Part shown: one piece after another, positions 42,701-60,200 of the stretch | How the letters are laid out: each line of letters starts with the position of its first letter | How positions within the stretch are numbered: position 1 is the stretch's first letter | Origin: Ascidiella aspersa | Lineage: Eukaryota | Assembly: GCA_963924565.1 (NCBI GenBank) | Contig: OZ004607.1 | Coordinates: 27,032,001 to 27,096,000, forward strand | DNA length: 64,000 nt | Direction: 5' to 3' | Position numbers and translations under genes: made by a program | The notes under the pieces: model-generated | Databases searched by the model: none | What the model was told of the DNA's origin: nothing | What the model saw: only the letters and a program-made list of their open reading frames with translations

Positions 42701-45700
42701 AGTTTCTAGCCCGTAGAACGACCAGAAAGCCGCCAACTAGTTTCAGGCTGCCGGTCACCAGCACTTGCAAATGCCGGCCGCTTTTGTTTGCCCTTTGTTG
42801 ATTATCGTCTCCCGAGATCTTTCCCATCAAGCTCCGATCACGACCTTTCGAAATGGATGCAATGAATTCTTCGATGCTTTCATGGGTGAATATGGAATCT
42901 TCAGGCATGTGCTGCGGTTCTGCATACGGAAAAAGTTACTAATTTGCGCGATTTATGTAGTACCTTTCAAAATTTTCAGCTGGAAGCTGGTCGATCCGAC
43001 TAGCTAATAAGGCGTGTAATTTACGTGTTGTTGTTCGGGTAATACCTTTAGGCCGATTTCGTCCCCAAAAAGAAGTAATACAATTATGTTTATTTTAATC
43101 TGTGTGTAATTTATTGCAGAATACACCTTCTATATTCTAACGTAGTCAAATCAAAGAAGCAGTATTACAAATTCGCTATTCGTTGGAGTTTTACATTTGT
43201 AGATAACCCTGCGTTTCTAAATAACAATACACAATATCACTTACAAAACAGTATTTTTCGTATATGGCCGTATTTGTCAAGCAAGGGGCGGCACCCAAGC
43301 AAGGCTCACAGTCGAACGAAACACAATTAAACAGTTCGATGCCATCAATGATATCTTAGACCAGTGGTTCTCAACCTTTTATGCTTCGTGGCCCCCTTTG
43401 AAAGGCTCTCAACCCTCGTGGCTCCCCTGCTTATAAAAATACCAAGCATTGTGTTTAAAGTCTCTTCACTTGTTTTACTTCTTTACGTTAACCACCAATA
43501 CAGCCATTAATCAACGATAAATGCACTTACTTTCTAAAAATTTAACAAAGAAGTCATTTTATTTCAAACTATAACTTAGTTAGTCATTACAAATTTTGTT
43601 CTTCGACGCCACCAAGGTATTTTATATATTCGGCTCTGTTTTGTACTGAGCCATGTCACTACACTCGTCGAGATGATTACTCGATTTTCGTTTTATTAAT
43701 GCGCGTTACTATTAGCCTACTTGACAAATAAGCTGCATAAACCGATGAATGTTGGCCTAAAAATGACCTTTTGAATAACCCGGTAGCGTATTTTATGCGT
43801 TTTACGGTGAAATGTTTCCTTTGCAACTGAACGCCCTTAAAGGAAATTGCGAACCGTTGCACCTGGCAATACACACTGGTTACTAACAGCATTTGCGGAC
43901 ACTTAATGATTGGGCGAAGGGTATCGGCAAGTAATAATTGGCCGCTCGAAAAAAACGCTGACGCCGCACGATAGATGACTATCTACAAAGCAGCACAGTA
44001 ATTGTTTTGCCACAGCGACAGGTCCCTAACCAAACTTGCCACTCGCGAACGACCAATTAGGCCTAACTTTCTGCGATAAAACGAATAAAAAGAATTCAAT
44101 ATTCTACTTTAAACATCCCTACTAACTAGTCAAAGTAGGTGTCAGAAAAATGTGTTACAAAGCGTTACAAGAAAGGTTTTCATAATAAAAACACAAAATT
44201 AAATTAACTGGTAAATTTTGAAAATAGTGACACTTTGGTTTTCGCAATATTTAGCTGGAGAGTTATGCCGGTGGCCCCCCAATGACCGGTCCGTGGCCCC
44301 CCAGGGGGCCGAGGGCCATGGTTGAGAAACCCTGTCTTAGATGTCACCATTCTTATCGCCTTTTACTTGCGCTTGTGCTTTTACGTGCATTTTAATTGTT
44401 TTCATTTACACTTTGACCTGATGAAGCACGGTTGTGCGAAAGCTTGTCGAGAATCCAATACAATTTGTCCTTATACAGTGCCACCTGATTCCTCTAAAAT
44501 AGTATTTGTGTGATTTTTTTTTGTGTGTTTTACTTTTAACACCAACCTGACATTTCCTGCAATTCCACCCAGGCATCTTTGTTCCTTATTAGTCGATCTT
44601 GTTCGTCTCGTGTAGCTTGCTTGCCGTCATCGAAAATAACGTTCGAGACGAAGGCGGCGCGTGAAAAGTTGCAGCTTTGCAGCAGAGCCAGGTGATTGAA
44701 GGCGTTCCTATCCAACGTGATGTTAAAGACCAGAACTCGCTCGCAGACTTTCCCGACGCGCGCTTCTTCCCGCTTTGCTTCCTGCATGAACCAAGTCTTG
44801 GCGCACGTCATGCTACGCATCGTGTGCGCGCCGTCCAAATAGAAACTCGTCGAGTCGAACTTGATAACCTGTGATCTGCCGTTTAACTCGCAGTTCTCGA
44901 GCGCATTTTTGTGCTTTTCGCCGATGTGATCCAGTCCTAAGTGGGCGCCCACACCAAGATGCGTGCGCAGCCATTGGTTCGCCAAGTGAACGGCGAGGGA
45001 CGTGTTAAGCTCTTGGTGTTTGCCCGCAAGCGAAAGTCTAACCTTTCCTGTCTGATTGTCGCAATTCGCAAGTTTGGGAACCACCGAGAGCGGCACGTTT
45101 TTCTCCAAAGCGACATCGTTGAGAATCTTCACGGCGTCGATCGGTTGCCTGACAGTGAACGCGGGCGAGCCAGGCTTGAAAATTCCCGCTTTGTGCCACG
45201 CGATGGACTCGGTGCTGTTGCCCAACAGCTTTATGTGGTCAACTCCGATGGAAGAAACCCCACACACAGTCGGCCTAGGAACTACGTTTGTGATGTCATA
45301 AGCACCGCCTATTGACACCTCCAGTATAGCTGCATCCACGCTTTCGTGCTTGAAGACGTAGAACGACATGGCGGTGATAAAGTAATAAAAATCTGGAAGC
45401 GGAACTGTTCGCTGGCTTGCGGTCGCCTTCAATCGTTCGTCGACCTTCCAAAAGTAATCGGTGAAAAGTTGTCTCGAAATCGGTTTTCCGTCGATTCTGA
45501 TCCTTTCTCTCACTTCAACCAAATGCGGAGAGGATAGAAATCCGGTTTTCACTCCGTGACGCTGCAATATGCCTTCAACGAAAGCGCAAGTCGAACCCTT
45601 GCCCTTAGTGCCTGTGACATGAACCGCGTTCATCTTGTTGAGGTCGTTCTCGTCCACGTCAAGTCCGCGAAGAAATCCCTGCATGGTTTCTTTGGCGTGA

Positions 45701-48700
45701 ATCCCATAAGGGGCACCGCCAAACATGTCTAAGCCCATATATTTATACAGGGCGTTTACTGCTCTGTGGTAGCTTATGTCGTTTCTCAACTGGTGAAGGC
45801 ATCTTGTTAACCAAAGATTTTTCCTGGCGCCGAGCAAAGTAACGTTCATTCTAATCATCTTTTTTCGCCGTCGGTTTAAAAACTTGCCCGCACTTTAAAT
45901 ATTCCACAATGTTGCGGTCTGCTGCTTGTACATTTGACTTGCTATTGTTCTGAATTATGAGCTAAATATAAGGCGGTTGTTAGTTAAGTCGAAAAACACT
46001 TAAAACAATTATTTCTATAATTAATTAAAGCGACAACCTGTCAACATAATTATCTGCAATCGTGTTGACACAACCAACTGTCGTTTTCTTTTTAAGCAGT
46101 AAGTTATGCGTTAACAGCCAAGCGTATTCTGGGGGTCAACGAAAACTCGGTCGTTCGGTCTCGGTTAGGTTAAAGACAATCAAGCGTAACCAACAGAAAG
46201 GTCGAAACTACCTTGTCCACAGCAGTCCTCCTCTACCTATCTATGCCATAAACTGGCACATTTTGGGGGCGAATTCAAAACCAATTGTTGCACCGCTTTC
46301 TGTTGTATCATGTTCGTTGAGACAATTTGTGCGAAAATGTACACACTGCAAACACCTATTCGCTAACCGTTACAAATACTAACCCTCGTAAACGAAGGGA
46401 CGTGCTTAGTTCGTCCTATAGCACGTTTTACAATTATCACACGCAGTTTACGATAACGCGTCTCTAAAACACTTTACTAAGCTTTAATCACCAGTTGTAG
46501 ATATCACATATCTTGAAGTAACCATATGATATTGTGCACTTATGCAATAAGTCACAAATTTAACGAAATAAACGAAGCACAATTTTATGGACCACTTTTT
46601 CCATCTACCGCACCGGTGGTCAAACCGCGGCTCTTCAACCAGTTTTATGCGGCTCTTACGTTCATTTCGTATAAATTTTTGGGGGATGTTCGATGTCTAT
46701 TATCGTGTGCCCAATTTTTGCCTTTTTTCGCCGAATTCTACTTATTATCTGCAAAAATTTTCGCGCCTTGCACAAAGCGTTTACCTTTCCACTATGCCTC
46801 AGTCTGAGAAATCTTGTTAGAATGGTACTTCGCTAACACCTTAAGGGGTGATGGTTTTTGTTGTCCTACCTTTTGAAAGTTTTCATGCTTGATATCCGTT
46901 GCAAAGTTGCACACACTGTTTTGGGGCTTTTATATCACGCCTAACAAACAAAATTATAGGATCTACCTCTGCTCAGATTCCACTTTCTTTTGTCAACAGA
47001 TTTCGGAAGCGTTAACAATGTGATGGCTATTATTTGAGCAGTCCTGTAGTCTGAATATAAATTTGCTTAAATGTAACTTATACGGAATATTGAGTTGATA
47101 AAATAATAATATTATTAATTTGAATAAGTCACTTCCTTCGAATGAATCATTCGAGTATATGAGAAAAAAACAGAATGTACATAATTTATGTAAATGAGAA
47201 ATTAATCATGATGTACAAAGAAAAGATGTACATAATTTGTGTAAATGAGAAAGAGACAGGATCTACAAAGAAAAGATGTACATCATTTGTGTAAATGAGA
47301 AAGAGACAGGATCTACAAAGAAAATATGTACATCATTTGTGTAAATGAGAAAGAAACAGGATGTACATAATTTGTAAAAATGAGAACAAACAGGATGCAC
47401 ATAATTTCCAATGTGTAAGGGGTGTTGCTCTTCGCAGTAATGCAAGTAACAAATGTGGCTATTGGTCTCTGACTGGTTGGCCACTTCTGCTACTGTGGAA
47501 TAACTTTGAAAATGTTATTAAACGATGGGATTTGACTGAATGTATGAAGTAAAAATCAAACGTAAAACCCGTCCAAGAGTATAACCCGCGCCAATAAACG
47601 TTTACCGTAGTCGCCATTTCGGTGAAGTTATTTTAACTTAAGCTATTAGCATGTTTTTTTTGTGTTTTTTTTAACTTGCAGACCAAGAAATACGGCGGTG
47701 AAGTATGTGACATCACAATCCAAATTGTGCTCAACAATGCCGACGACCTATCGTCACTTCAAACTGCTGGAAAAAAGCACGCCTGTTTACTGCTGATTGG
47801 TGCGTGATGTGTAAATCTAATAAATACAAACCCGTTTTTTGTAACCAAGATAGTCGAAAACCCGACGTTGTCGCATCTTATTAGAAATACTGCCTGCTGG
47901 CCCGAATATAATTTTTCTTTGCGAGCTTTCCTTATAAAATGAGATAACTATATTTTTTAAGACATGTATCGTATGGTCGTAATCATAGATTTCTGTGCAT
48001 AGTACGAAACATACATGAAAATGATGTACAGTTGTACACGTTTAGTAAAGAAAGCTAGAACTCATTATGTTTTTATGGCGTTTGTTTTATATATGTATAA
48101 TCAGAGTATTTTGTGCAAAGTTATAAATGGGTATGTAATAGATATACATATGTATTGGGCAATTAAGCTAAAACATATTGTTGTAGCGGAAACACTAACT
48201 GCTTCGCTGACATGATACCCATTTTTGCAGGCGACACAGACAATCACGTCATCATAAAGCAGCGCATATTCGACAGCACTCTGACGTCATCAAGCGATCA
48301 TGCGTGGCAGCGGTCGGTCACGGTTCGGCGAGCGGCAAGAGGAGACGAACTCAGTGTGAAGCTTATAAGCATGGACTGGGGTGAGTTTTCCATAAAAAGA
48401 AAATCGCGCGATGTTTTAATAGGATATTTTATTGAGTTTTGGTGGTGGTACGAATAATATGTTTTACTTACTTTTTGAATTTAATGTAGCTTGGTAGGTT
48501 CTAACTTGTTTTAATGATATAGTATTATGTATAGTGAAAGTGAGTAAAACACATCATTTGAATACAATTCAATTAGACCAGTGGTTTTTAACCTTTTTTC
48601 AGTCGCGACCCCCTTTGTAATACAATGGCAAATGTTGCAAAAATATAGATTAGCGCAAAAAAGTTCGAGTCCCGCTGTTGCTAGGCTGTTATCTTCATCA

Positions 48701-51700: not shown

Positions 51701-54700
51701 AAACAGTTAAAAATCTCCTAATGCTGAAAGAACCAATGCGCGAAATCTATTTTCCTGTTTATTCGTCGCTTTAAGCTTCACGCTGAAACATGCCATGCAG
51801 ACTAACTCCGCCTTTATCTTTATTTCAAGATCGCCAGGATGGGAACATTTGCACTCATTCGCCGAACAAATGCAGACGGCGGCGGAGTGCGACCTTGACG
51901 AGAAAAAGGAAACCGGAGAACCGCTTGGTACGAGCGAGTTTGCAAGAGAGCAGGGATATTACCAGGTGGGATACGATTTTAAAGCTGACCGCTTTAATCA
52001 GAACACCAGTAAATCACGCCTTCTATATTTTCAATTTTAAATGTAAATAATAAGCAAGGGACCTTCGCTTTGCTTGTTTTTCACCTTTTTTATTCTTACT
52101 TTGACCTGATAAAGCTCGGTTGTGCGAAAGCTCGTCAATTCCATACAATTTGTCGACAGTGCCACTTATTTTCTATTTTTGAATAAGACAATACGGCTAT
52201 CAACCAAGATTAATTAAACTAGCATCGTAATAGCTAATGTTTTACACAAGAAATTAAAATTTTAAGCTTTTGCTAGTCCTCTTTGTTTCAACTTTTCACT
52301 GTTGTAAATCCAAGCAATAAAACACAAATCATTTATTCCAATAAAAACACTAACTCAGCAGTCGTCCAGACCCTTGGCCCTAAAATAGTTCGCCTTTTTT
52401 CTCAGGACCAAATTAACTTGAGATCCAGGATAACTCGTGCGGATGAGGATGACTTCGCGGCCGAGAGTGGTAAAACACTAGTGAAGAAAAATACGAAAGA
52501 CGAGAGGTTGTGGACAATTAAAGGCGATTCGCAGGGTGTGCTAACTGTTGCATTTTTCAGAAATACTCTGCCGTTACTTAATCGTGAAACCGTAATCTAA
52601 AGGTTTTTTTTCAAAATGAACTTTAATTCATAAATAGATTAAACGATACACCGAAAGCAATTGCAGACTTACCGAATCTGTTGATCTATGATGCAAGCAG
52701 GGAAGGCTAGAAAAACTACTCGTTCCTTTTTGAGCCTGTATAGCTCAGTTGGTAGAGCGACGGTCCCAGCTTGACCGGAGGTCGTAAGTTCAAACCTCAA
52801 TGCAGGCTAGTTGTTTTTCTTGCCTGCCCTGCTTGCATCATAGATCAACAGATTCAGTGTGTCTGCGATGGCTTTCGGTGTACTAATTATACGTAAGCCG
52901 TAATCGTTGGTCAAAAAGCAGCTTCAAGGCTAGATCTCAGTTGTTAACACACTGTGTGTGCAACTGTGCAGTGTGCATGTTTCATAAATAGATTAAACAA
53001 TGTTATTTTCTTACGCATTTTCTGATCGAAGATGATGAAGACGGTGACCTACAGCTGGCCAGCTTGCAGCCCCGCGCTTACAAGCACGGACTCGCCAATG
53101 GATCGTCGGTATCGCAGAAACTCGCTTGCAAGGCAAGGTTTAAGGTCGGACAGATTTTATCTTTCTATGTAAAAACGAAATTATCAACTTTGATTGCAGT
53201 CATATAATTGTCGTCTTGTAATTTACCAATTATTTCACCACAACTTTTGTCCCCCAACCTAAATCTCCTTATGGTTAAGTGAAAAACGGACTACCTAAAA
53301 ATTGCAACCAAAAGCGCTGCCTATATTAATAATCATTTGTATTCTCTTTCAATTAAAGATTTAATATAAATTGCGTATTCGAGCTATTTCTAACTATGCA
53401 ACTTAACGATGGCCCTGATTCGTTTTGCAACAATGTAACTCGTACTTTTCAAATGATCATTTACTTTGTAAAACGCGTATTTATTTATGTTTTGTAAATT
53501 TAGACCAATGGCGGCTCAACGCCAAGTCGTATGGGCAAGGTGTTTGCGTGGAAGTCATCAAATTGTGAGCGACCCGCGTCCAACGCTACAAGCTTCACCT
53601 TCGATCAGCCGCCACTAAATGACCCTCACAGATCTAGACCACCAAAGAACAATTGCGAACCTGTAGAAAAATCTTACGGCCAAGTCGACAGGAGATACGC
53701 CCAAGGCATCCAGCGATCGCAAGGCGAAGGCGTGTTTTCAGCCCGTAAAACCGAATCTCGTAGTCAGTGTGGAGCGAAAGATGCAAGCTATAATCGAGGG
53801 TCGAATTTAGCCTCTTCAGCCATTCGCGAATTTTCCTCCGAAGTTACGGGTTCAGTAGTACGCAAAATGACTAGCACAGGACAGGGTATTAGCTCAAGCA
53901 AACCTGTGGCCGTTGAAAACAGGCAAAGTGTATTGTGCTCGAACGACGAAGGTGATTCGGTTGGCGAGGGATTGCAAAGCAGACGAGGTTTGTTTGCCAT
54001 CCAAAGGCATACAGGTGCAGTCGCAGAGCAGAGGCATCAGCTATCGCGACGGTTAGGTTCTCAGGTCAGCTCTATTTCCAACACTTCATCGTTTGGTCAG
54101 GCTCTGTCGTGTAATGCGAGTGCGCGCGGCGTAAGCTTCGCTAAGCAGCAGCAACAACAAACAGACACATACGGGCAGGTTTATCAAGCAAACGCTCCAC
54201 CTAGGAGCCAGTCAGTTGTGGCAGGAAGCATTTGCAACAGCTCATTTGGAGAAAACCCAGCGAAAAACTCACCTGGATTGGTATTCAGCGACCGCAGGAG
54301 TTCTACGAAAGCGAAGTCCCCCTGGTTTAAAACTGCAAGGAACAACTCTTGGGTTTCAACGCCGGCTTCTACAGAAGTTTCAGACAGATTGCCAGCCCAG
54401 GGCCTTTCGATGCTTGATCATTTGTGGGACAAGAGTAACACGTCTGCTTTTGAGGATGGAGACGGAAAGTTGTCGCCTTTTGATGGTAATAGCAGCTGAT
54501 ATATCTTCTTAAGTGAGTTGTTTAAGTTTTTTATTTGGAAAACTCCGTGACGACATTTCACTAACATTATTGCGTTAGATAAGCGTTTTACTTAGAACCA
54601 CGAAACAAACAGTCTTAAGTGATTTGTATAATACCAAATTTAAGTACCAATATACTGTTTCTACCAAATAAAAAAACCTGCTGCATTGAGACATTAATGA

Positions 54701-56091: not shown

Positions 56092-57236
56092 AACAGTTGA
56101 CTGCTTTGTGTAGAAATGATTAATTATCGGCAAACCGGGCGCATGTACAGAGATTCTGAAGTTTATTGTTTTTTCTTGTTTTCCACATGTTGCAAAAAGT
56201 TTTCTTAATTAAATGCAACTTTTGTTTCGGTGTTGTTTTCTGTATTCTGTTCTGTGGTAAAAAATCTGTTGCTCTTTTGCAGAGTTTAGCAAACGACAAC
56301 GTTGCCAACAAATTGTTTTATAAACTTACTTATGTGGCACAATGTGAATTTTTTTTTTTCTGTTTGTTTTTTATCGTTTCGTTTTTTGTTAATGAAATTG
56401 TTGTTTTAGGTTTCAATGAAATATTTTTCGTATAAATACAAAGTGTTGTATAAATACAAAGAAGTTGTAGAATGTTACCATATTGCTGTTTTAGAAAGCC
56501 TGCAAATTATTATTTCTTTAATACACGTATATACAGTATCGTTAAGACAGACGACAAGAAGTCTAACGTAGTTGTGGGAATTTCAATTTGAAGCTCTCGC
56601 AAAGAGGGCTTGCTAGAAAAACAATTTTTTTTTTTTTTTTGACTCCAGAAGTGCTTTATAATAGAATACACATTACACATTGTGTAGATGTATGTGTAAT
56701 TGTGTATACAGTTTAAGATCTTGTAAACAACGTTTAGGTTTAGGTGTTTACGGCCTGGGGATGCGTTTTACTTGGTTTTCCATGCGTTTTGAAAACATCT
56801 AAATAAATTTATATATTATATATTTCACACCAGATATTTATCAACTTGTCAAATATATTAGCACTGGATTTTTTAAAATTTTTGTGTTCTATATCTTCTC
56901 ATTTTCTCCACTGTATGCTCCTGGAGATTTCTGCAAGGAATGAATCAACTTTTGCCACCGATTGCTTTATTGACGTGTCATTGGATAAATTCAATCTCAT
57001 TTCATCTCAATAGTACCAAATGCTTTGAATATACCAATACTAACACAAGGCACCATTGGAGTGTGCGAGACTGTCGACTGCAAGGCATTCGCGAAACGTT
57101 CGTGATCGCAATTTTAATCGCAAAAAGAGGGATGCGAGAAAAGCTAAAAGGATAGAAATGGGCGGCAATTTGCAAATGCTAATAAGGGATGGGTGCAAAA
57201 CTGTACACAACGATTCGGAAAAGCTGGCGGCGGGTT

Positions 57237-60200
57237 TCACTTGAAGGAGGCCGCTACATTTCCGACGCCTCCGTGTCCGACGATCTTCACTTTGCCGGTG
57301 CCGGCTCGCTTCGACTTGGTGAACTTGCCCATGTACTCGTTCACGCGCTGACGAAGCTGGTTAATCTGCGGCCGACAAATGTAAATGTAAGCTTTTAAGC
57401 GCACTTATGCAAAACTTCAGTAGAATTACTATGTAACGATTTAAAAAGTAAGTAAACCAGGCTAGATTCTATTGTTGCTTGTTTGTTCAAGAGCTGCGGA
57501 GTCGGTTGAAAATAACCCTAGTCCGACTCCAGCTAAGAAAATAAACCCGATTCCGACTCCGCCCTGGTTTGTTGTTGTATTTTGTAAATGTGTAGCTGCT
57601 TAGCAAATTTAAATTTTTGTATAGTGTGCCGTACAATAGGGTGAAAGACTTACGTCATATTTTTGCCGGTTGATTCTCTGCTCGAAGTCATACTTCTCAT
57701 CCTCGAGGACGTACAGCCAGTCCCAAAGCTCAGTCGCCTTCTCGCGAAGCCTTTGAAACAAGCAAAGTTTAGTTGTGCTAAAATTGTGTTTGGACTTCCA
57801 TAGAATTTTCCATCCATGTAATAATTATGCTTACTTGTCAATTCCGAGATGGTCAATGTTGAGGGGCTTACGGCGATCGGCCAAGATCTTGCGCTTCTTT
57901 TCGCGGTCGGTCTGGCGCTTATTCGGCTTGTTCTTCTCGGCCTAATGTAGACAATAACAGAAACAATGTAACTTGTCCTGGTTGCCAACTAAACAGCTTG
58001 TTCCCAAACGTCACACGAATAGTAACTTACACGTGCGAGGTATCCTCCGTAGTGAAGCGACATGTTGGCGATCGCAGCCTTCTTTCTTGCTTCCTCATCC
58101 AAGCGCTTCACTTCTTCCTCCTCTTCTTTCCTCTTGCGCTCTTCCTGAAATTCATAAAAGAACAATTTTGACCAACACGAGCAGACCTTTGTCGTTAAGC
58201 TTAATTTTTATGTACATTTAGAACTACAAAGTGTTTTTCAAATGGACTGCAAGCAATGTTAACTTTTAAATTTTACTAAACTAAACCAGCAAAGCCAACT
58301 AAAAACATATTTTGTAATTTTTAAACAACAACTTAAATGTTATGCGGGTGGGCTTGCTCGATTTTAAAAGTTAGATAAATAGGCTTTAAAGTTGACCAAC
58401 CAAAACCGACAGCTATTGTCAAATCTCACATTCATGTTCATTATATAGGTCATCATAATTTTAGTTATTTCAAAATATTATTAGACTTTTAACAGCCGAA
58501 TTATATAAAATTCAAATTCAAAGTCCAACTCAAAGTTGTGCTCACCCTCTCCTGGGCCATTCTCTGCTTTTCGCGTTCCTGACGCTCGCGGGCCTGCTCG
58601 GACCTCTCGGCCTTGCGCTTGTCGATGCGGATCTTGAGCGCGGCCAGTTCCTCCTCGTCCTTCTTGCGCTGCTCGAAGTGCGCGTTGATAAGTCCCTGCA
58701 GCTCGCTGAGGTCCTTCTCCATACGCTTGCGGTGGATGTCCTCCAGGTCGATCAGCTCGCCATCGGGGATCTTTGGCGGCGTGATACGCGGCACCGAAAG
58801 TCTTCAAAAGGAAAGATTTTTTATTATGGTTGTAGGCCTACTGGAGGAGCTGCTTTGCTACACATCCTTTACGCCAGAGGTTCTTAAACGGGGTCCATGA
58901 ACCCCTTGGGGGTATTTGAACTAGTTTTAGGGGGTCTACATGGCCTAATTGAAATGTTAGTGTATAGGTAAAAAGTAGCCTAATCAACTTTTTAAAGAAA
59001 AGGCTTTAATCGAAAATAAAACTTTTTTGCACTGAATGTTTTTAGACTCTTTTGACCGACAACAGCAGACTTATGAAGTTTATTTGTATTGTGACGTAAA
59101 TTTATGACGCCATCTCTTAAAATTTCTTGCCTACACTGTTCCATGCGAAGCAAAAATTTTTTCAAGGGGCCCGCCGTAAAAAATGTTTAAGAATCCCTGC
59201 TTTACGCGAAATAAATGTGATTGAAAACGTTATATACGTGGAACTTTTGTACCAACTAGGATTTCAGGCTGTGCACTTTAGTGAAACGTGATCGTTTTTC
59301 AGCAGCAACCTTTGCGATACAAAAACAACAAATAATAATTTTGCACTTACTTGGGTGCTTGTGGTGTTTCCGGCTTGAGCTGCACGATAAATAAGACAAT
59401 AAGAGCGTATAAAAATAAGCAAAGTGGCTTAATAAACGCCTATGATGTCTCAATAATTAGAAGAGGCGAATGTTTTAACTTGACCCAATTTTCTACTTCC
59501 TCTTCCCCCTTTTATCCCTTAAGATACTTGGTTAAAATGGTGTAGTGTGTTCTACAGTCCCGATAAAAGGGGTATTCGCTTAACCCTTGCGGCCCCATGA
59601 CGCGTTTGATCGCAAGCTGAGATTATACTACCTCCTCTTGTTGGGTTTCCGGTTCGGGTTCATGCTCGGGTTCCGGTGTTTCTTCCACCTCTTCTTCTTC
59701 TTCAACTTCTTCGACCTCTTCCTGGGTTTGTTCGATCTCCTCCTGACGTCATCAATTCAGCGGCGGACGATGACGCATTAGCGGGTGACGAAACAAAGGT
59801 GAAGAAAGCGTGTGGTTAGCCAGCAGTTACATGCGTGCTTGGTCAATAAACTATAACGTATTTACAGTGAAGCAGAAAGCATGCACGAATGATGACCTTG
59901 CACATAATAGTTCAACAAATATGCGCTATGTTATATCAGACACTACAGCTTTTGTGGAAAATCTAAAAATATTCCTATTGCTGTGGTTTACTAGTTTAGA
60001 CTATGTACAATTTTTAATATTTGTTTTTGCCTAATGTTTGATTTTATAAATTGAACGCAGTCTGCAAAAAATATTTACTTGTATCTTATCTGATGTTGCA
60101 ATAAAGGTTTTCATATTACAGAAAAACAACATGACTACCTTTTTATTTACTCTCTCTATATGTATATACTATTTTCTAGCGCCATATTTAAACTGAATCT

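Follow-up and report, generated by a model that had tools for sequence, protein, structure and literature searches.

A tRNA-bearing tandem repeat with two preferred insertion ends is probably a non-autonomous derivative of Penelope-like elements in an ascidian genome

Results

A tRNA-like hairpin inserted in a helicase gene

The window analysed here is a 64,000-nucleotide stretch of the Ascidiella aspersa genome, and the insertion under study lies in it between the open frames 52277-52600 and 52992-53207. Exons upstream on the plus strand match DEAD, Helicase_C and Sec63 domains and Ski2-like helicases, which is compatible with the host gene being HFM1/Mer3, as we take it to be. The neighbouring exons are read on one strand in one RNA run, consistent with a plus-strand gene; since no spliced read spans the insertion among the joints listed, we infer, rather than observe, its position within an intron. 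An uninterrupted frame of 452 aa on the minus strand (44536-45894), which matches Mur_ligase_M and presumably resembles folylpolyglutamate synthase, is located antisense between helicase exons, while minus-strand exons at 57044-59750, which we take from their translation to encode troponin T, converge on the helicase gene. A decayed 3' fragment of a Penelope-like element (PLE) of the YLRY type, with a hammerhead remnant and a short tail, occupies 52070-52215 and shows high read depth at 52062-52138; a related piece is found at about 44399-44484.

Two 74-nt inverted arms (52647-52720 and 52809-52882), complementary at 66 of 74 positions with a perfect core of 29 bp, enclose 88 nt in which ARAGORN identifies a tRNA-like cloverleaf (52733/4-52808/9) and Rfam a tRNA match of 39.1 bits (E 2.5e-6). 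The hairpin folds with -163.6 kcal/mol (z -13.0), a value reached by none of 100 shuffles, and is bounded by the 18-nt direct repeat TTCATAAATAGATTAAAC at 52627-52644 and 52981-52998. The arms and their core, the tRNA-like loop and the 18-bp repeat had all been described in a first-pass annotation of this DNA and were confirmed. The same annotation took the whole repeat as an 18-bp target-site duplication (TSD); the repeat stands, but its length as a TSD is 13-18 bp, because the family's own end sequence coincides with the first 5 nt of the 3' copy, and 13 bp is the mode in the family. In the coordinates of the repeat unit described below, the window copy is unit 176-249 in inverted orientation, joined via a 3-nt microhomology to unit 85 to about 341. 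Its features are as follows.

52627-52644, unstranded: 5' copy of the TSD (13-18 bp), a direct repeat
52647-52720, minus strand: inverted piece, unit 176-249, with its outer end at site B, a putative internal start of reverse transcription (RT)
52718-52720, unstranded: 3-nt microhomology at the head-to-head junction of unit 85 and unit 176, which recurs independently in copy L002
52718-52733, plus strand: leader remnant, unit 85-100; here 5' truncation of the main piece has removed the rest of the 100-nt leader
52734-52808, plus strand: tRNA-like cassette, unit 101-175, with its stems paired
52741-52752, plus strand: A box of the cassette
52787-52796, plus strand: B box of the cassette
52809-52882, plus strand: body, unit 176-249, which pairs with the inverted arm and stops at site B
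52814-52818, plus strand: T5 run directly behind the cassette, a likely Pol III terminator
52883-52985, plus strand: PLE-type tail, unit ~250-341, running from B to its end at site A
52981-52998, unstranded: 3' copy of the TSD, of which the first 5 nt also match the unit end

The short T-rich spacer noted earlier in front of the cloverleaf exists as sequence but is not a separate element, as it corresponds to the last 16 nt of the leader, which is 100 nt long in full units; its T-run derives partly from two changes in the window copy. Similarly, the TGTGCA-like repeats are present, but they represent local variation of the family's ACACATATGTGTG hairpin and not a family-wide simple-repeat tail. 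DNA reads with loose ends before 52718 continue as leader. At a site DNA depth of 1.5-3x, the empty-site joint is absent among the 15 listed of 225 joints, and contigs of run X1 carry both junctions.

A family of 345-bp tandem units

A search of the animal's own genome (309 Mb) gave 3,461 candidates, 40 of which were scored at first look. Most of the top-scoring matches have no upstream arm and run on into a leader of about 100 nt, and many of them stand in head-to-tail arrays with a 345-bp period. An exact 16-mer and an exact 18-mer of the family occur 299 and 394 times in the genome, and DNA reads that cover the body at 10,733x and the flanks at 4.8x give about 2,200 copies at 88% identity or more, a rough estimate because flank depth is low. 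The window feature is a single 5'-truncated and 5'-inverted copy of a non-coding unit of about 345 bp, of which the genome holds about 2,000-2,200 copies. The coordinates of this unit were taken from one real monomer (L026:1417-1761) and comprise the leader (1-100), the tRNA-like cassette (101-175), the body (176-250) and the tail (251-345). A sister subfamily with a 348-bp period, at a median of 98.8% to a real unit, is younger than the main family; one of its 14-mers occurs 368 times in the genome. A head-to-tail array of 12 sister units with this period (G000:C1:37349880-37353721) is a candidate source locus.

Units within an array share rare variants about 7-fold above unrelated copies (0.61 vs 0.087 per 100 nt), and only 25% of variants are common to the units of one array. 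A monomeric circle as template was considered on these grounds and set aside, as variant sharing fails to separate a circle from a multimer or from later duplication. The fold of the monomer has a z of -3.5. Across the unit border, the tail and the leader of the next unit form a long stem headed by site A (z -4.6 and -5.1); this stem is conserved, yet its covariation term is 0.05, and duplexes with swapped tail and leader (-25.8 and -28.9) are about as stable as the native ones (-27.6 and -28.5).

A short direct repeat (GTTGTTT..TC) flanks the cassette at unit 72-84 and 176-187 of the L026 monomer and may have been left behind when the cassette itself was inserted. At about unit 71, several copies (L099, L185) begin or change template.

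The cassette, ribozyme searches and transcription

The A and B boxes and the stems of the cassette are intact and its anticodon loop is non-canonical, reading CCGGCTT in 33 of 44 full units; a run of five or more T follows the cassette in 35 of the 44. In the window and six tandem loci Rfam placed only tRNA above threshold and no ribozyme, although the same models also miss the minimal hammerhead of PLEs. A hammerhead motif scan of both strands in both subfamilies found no complete core: the main unit is without CUGANGA, and the sister leader has a lone CUGAUGA with no GAAA on that strand, which may be a hammerhead relic. Where the PLEs of this genome have their hammerhead core starting 94-101 nt before B, the cassette has its 3' end 76 nt before B.

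RNA reads of the family in one standard paired library are few per copy and strand-balanced (126/135 and 119/139), which suggests passive co-transcription; this single run is uninformative on small or circular RNA, and at the hairpin itself reads from other copies swamp the locus. By analogy with the Sm-alpha repeats of Schistosoma, the most likely function of the cassette would be that of an internal Pol III-type promoter acting on the units downstream, a role made less likely by the T5 run behind it, which argues against Pol III read-through. Processing of the cassette by RNase P/Z is a bolder guess, and one that the distribution of ends given below does not support unless the product were circularised.

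Classed inverted insertions nearly always combine one A end with one B end

Ends were mapped at 190 loci, namely the 30 best matches, one further locus, and the rest in genome order from two exact patterns that flank unit position 250 and may favour inverted insertions. Removal of 38 duplicates left 152 insertions, among which a few allelic or segmental pairs are still counted twice. Head-to-head inversion was found in 64 of these (~42%), while by BLAST the other 88 are without an inverted piece. Arm length varies from about 17 to over 800 nt. The 5' inverted arm is thus frequent among genomic copies but is not a fixed part of them, and the novel fold-back SINE architecture that had been suggested does not hold for the family. 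A very short inverted arm was detected in 8 of the 88 'direct' insertions, compared with 3 of 601 control windows.

The outer ends are largely confined to two places. With windows drawn after viewing the first sample, 181 of 216 outer ends fall at site B (243-262, median 251) or site A (335-345), about 94 nt apart and together 9% of the unit. Both ends could be classed in 45 of the 64 inverted insertions, and 42 of these pair one A with one B, against two A+A and one B+B (p 4e-10 against 0.5). The remaining 19 have an end outside the windows, and in 10 inverted insertions the arm ends away from B; the window copy is among the 19 only because its decayed tail stops the BLAST alignment at 330. 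Because the windows had been drawn on the first sample, the sister subfamily was examined, where 30 loci gave 26 insertions. Thirteen of its 15 inverted insertions are A+B, none A+A or B+B and two unclassed, and all 11 direct insertions end at A or B. Over both subfamilies, 55 of 58 classed inverted insertions pair an A end with a B end. Exact repeats of 9-18 bp stand at both ends of 36 of the 64 inverted and 20 of the 88 direct insertions, and TSDs of 10-14 bp in 19 of the 26 sister insertions. The view that the window hairpin arose during reverse transcription, within a single insertion bounded by its TSD, survives, whereas its description as a one-off event does not, as inversion in this family is habitual and follows a two-site rule.

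Had the arm-tRNA-arm structure itself been the propagated master of a fold-back SINE subfamily, its junction should be a common inheritance. L002 does have the identical junction; yet of six genome-wide matches to the junction pattern only two are in family copies, namely these two (an exact pattern misses decayed copies), and they are 90.6% alike, about the family median, differ in their TSDs and outer ends, and are not nearest relatives. We regard such a master as highly improbable.

Inner ends are spread over the whole unit

In contrast to the outer ends, the 216 inner (5') ends are flat around the unit (uniformity chi-square p 0.91), with no peak at the tRNA head or the unit border. A flat distribution points to a template without a fixed 5' end, such as a multimer or a circle, unlike that of an ordinary SINE. 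Two candidates for a fixed end were rejected: the cassette as 5' end of the template, by processing or Pol III start, given that 5' ends are not enriched at ~101 or ~176, and an RNA 5' end at unit 1, which was mostly an alignment-edge effect and retained 4 of 216 ends after circular extension. In the sister subfamily 2 of 41 inner ends lie at ~101 and 7 of 41 within 5 nt of B (p 3e-4, in a window chosen after looking), as if cDNA were stalling at a second priming complex.

These data also bear on whether the unit could be an ordinary tRNA-SINE driven by a LINE, with inversions from L1-type twin priming and tandems from later duplication. Twin priming is known for L1, and intact A/B boxes with a cloverleaf, variable TSDs and 5' truncation would all be expected of such an element. 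Its tRNA, however, is internal, the inner ends are flat, no poly(A) or microsatellite end occurs in the end contexts, inversion affects about 42% of the sample and takes place at a fixed second site, and the tail, as compared with PLE ends, is PLE-like rather than LINE-like. A LINE-driven origin is consequently very unlikely.

A closer competitor keeps the PLE machinery and derives the inverted piece from self-priming (snap-back) of the cDNA or from an antisense template, with the endonuclease resolving the product at fixed sites. The window arm lies wholly within its main piece, and the 3-nt microhomology flanks the cloverleaf, which would bring the ends close together, so that snap-back is possible for the window copy alone, as had been suggested for it; the recurrence of its junction in L002 fits as well. 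Arms are also nearer to their own main piece (median 0.947) than to other copies (0.896), which a common age or template would equally give. Self-priming has been proposed for PLEs (PMC3846280), as has endonuclease-mediated resolution of tails (PMC8557442). In 18 of 45 A/B insertions, on the other hand, neither piece is contained in the other; as each then has private sequence, one piece cannot be a snap-back copy of the other. Either piece may be the longer, inner ends of the sister subfamily accumulate at B, and in vitro work on another PLE has shown two sites of RT start (PMC11167929). Taken together, these observations make self-priming an unlikely source of the inverted pieces in general, and we favour two priming events.

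Penelope-like elements of the same genome

The genome yields 133 GIY-YIG matches and contains autonomous PLEs with an RT domain, a C-terminal GIY-YIG domain, a CxxCxxC linker and CCHH. The linker is as in Neptune/Nematis, a likeness of motif and not of tree position, and the closest proteins are from the ascidian Phallusia. These PLEs contain minimal hammerhead cores. For six families of the FKRF type, the distance from the core start to the shorter end is 94-101 nt, and tails are 78-100 nt long. In 7 of 10 examined PLE inverted-repeat pairs, a TSD of 12-15 bp is accompanied by a tail on one side; six FKRF-type loci have tails of 70-100 nt, and a YLRY-type locus has one of 25 nt. Minimal hammerheads occur in at least eight PLE families among loci L211-L290, and in one type the core reads GUAA instead of GAAA. 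An inverted A+B sister insertion directly adjoins the end of a YLRY-type PLE copy (L196/L222). A UvrC-like, bacterial-type GIY-YIG frame on the small contig C11 (L192) and a further strong match on C35 (L191) suggest bacterial contigs in the assembly.

A comparison of the tail with Penelope ends, proposed in the first-pass annotation, gave a partial answer. The unit's tail aligns in register with that of one PLE family, F1, both starting at B (score 58, z 5.3, p 0.0003), and the best 80-nt window of the 3.3-kb F1 locus is at 2310, where the true B is 2311; the alignment reaches z 4.1 for the window copy and z 3.3 for the sister. Other parts of the unit and its reverse strand remain at z 0.9 or below against PLE tails, and the body (z -0.3) and leader (z 2.0) give no such match to the F1 3' region and F1, respectively. 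The match was first spotted by eye, is the best of seven tails (next z 2.9), and is short and diverged; a profile search over 455 kb brought it no further than E 0.35-0.58. In 100 PLE loci (615 kb) there was no near-identical autonomous partner, a pattern search combining hammerhead and tail motif had 0 matches, and the F1 equivalent of the tail-leader stem folds no better than shuffles (z 0.07). Given a short best-of-seven match and no closer partner, F1 is to be seen as a relative of the donor and not as a proven mobiliser.

Discussion

The family to which the window hairpin belongs is probably a non-autonomous derivative of PLEs, inserted by an RT/GIY-YIG protein that primes twice, at two fixed sites of the RNA. 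The structural hallmarks of PLEs that were looked for, partial tandems, an inverted 5' copy and a one-sided tail, are all present; the sequence link of the unit to a PLE is suggestive only. The unit is not a strict retrozyme, since it has no hammerhead, and it is not a canonical SINE, since its cassette is internal and it has no simple 3' end.

We propose the following mechanism of how such insertions might arise. The template would be a multi-unit (read-through) or circular RNA, as the pieces cross unit borders freely. The PLE protein would nick both target strands about 13 bp apart, and one nick would prime reverse transcription at A and the other at B. The two cDNAs would stop at variable points, some of the A-primed ones at B, and be joined head to head with the help of microhomology. 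For the window copy, the cDNA begun at A would have reached unit 85 and the one begun at B unit 176, which would leave 176-249 present twice, in opposite orientation, around the tRNA. The resulting hairpin is most likely a neutral by-product in the host intron.

A more speculative extension joins three ideas in what may be called a 'Penelope SINE': the cloverleaf would have replaced the hammerhead, host tRNA enzymes would circularise the RNA, and the combination of A and B would reflect an asymmetric dimer. RNase P/Z and tRNA ligase would then cut and circularise the unit RNA, and an asymmetric PLE dimer would prime the two target nicks at different RNA sites. As a joint proposal this is doubtful, and we offer it tentatively.

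How PLEs produce tandem and inverted insertions with one-sided tails is called an open question in the PLE papers cited here. The A/B rule can be counted here because the family is short, young and numerous, and its inverted insertions are likely a compact natural record of PLE integration. An RNA of about 350 nt with two predicted start sites would suit the existing in vitro assay. The family suggests that a SINE-like element may partner with a PLE instead of a LINE, and may do so without a ribozyme. For annotation, ARAGORN calls some 2,000 cassettes tRNA-Ala, so that tRNA numbers would come out too high, and many of the insertions leave a long hairpin in an intron.

Comparison with known systems

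The unit displays individual features of several known groups of elements. TRNA-derived SINEs, to which Cics-1 of Ciona belongs, likewise have A and B boxes, high copy numbers and TSDs; the unit, however, has its cassette away from the 5' end and lacks a 3' end of simple repeats, no LINE-type tail was seen in it, and its 3' ends fall at two fixed positions.

Animal non-LTR retrozymes are, like the unit (345/348 nt), highly self-paired non-coding tandems of 170-400 nt; they co-occur with PLEs, are related to pLTRs and have been proposed to be non-autonomous PLE derivatives (PMC7229834, bioRxiv 10.64898/2026.07.22.740005). Each retrozyme unit carries a type I hammerhead in these descriptions, whereas the unit here has none and a tRNA cassette instead. 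Abundant circular RNA is a further mark of retrozymes, while our unit is known from the genome and a standard RNA library. The words 'tRNA' and 'tail' do not occur in the main text of the retrozyme preprint (bioRxiv 10.64898/2026.07.22.740005).

The Sm-alpha and Sj-alpha elements of Schistosoma are also tandem repeats with an internal Pol III-type promoter (putative in our unit), and an upstream unit is thought to transcribe the next (PMC6765202). They differ in having an active hammerhead, where the unit has none and a full cloverleaf followed by T5, and the consulted part of their account names neither a PLE partner nor a two-site rule for ends (PMC6765202).

The MRC1-type elements of Chlamys are non-autonomous and arranged head to tail, but belong to a green-algal clade with an N-terminal endonuclease (EN), and no tRNA cassette is mentioned in the available description (PMC8557442). 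Non-autonomous PLE derivatives (MRC1, animal retrozymes) and tandem Pol III-type repeats of schistosomes are thus already known from these sources. A PLE derivative that has no ribozyme, bears a tRNA cassette and follows a one-A-one-B rule was not found in the mostly open-access literature with which the family was compared, a comparison that lies outside Repbase and Dfam.

The unit also resembles the EN+ PLEs themselves (Penelope/Poseidon, Neptune, Nematis), which have been described as forming partial tandems, with an inverted copy on the 5' side and a tail that is often confined to one end (PMC8557442, PMC3846280), and which share with the unit these traits as well as variable TSDs and two starts. 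For one such protein, in vitro work shows two RT start sites, with the tail as the sequence from one to the other; the protein, a predicted dimer, cuts and extends both strands (PMC11167929). The unit departs from these elements in having no ORF, no hammerhead and a tRNA cassette; its tail of 94 nt exceeds the 30-40 nt given in published descriptions of PLEs, but fits the 70-100 nt tails of the PLEs with which it shares the genome.
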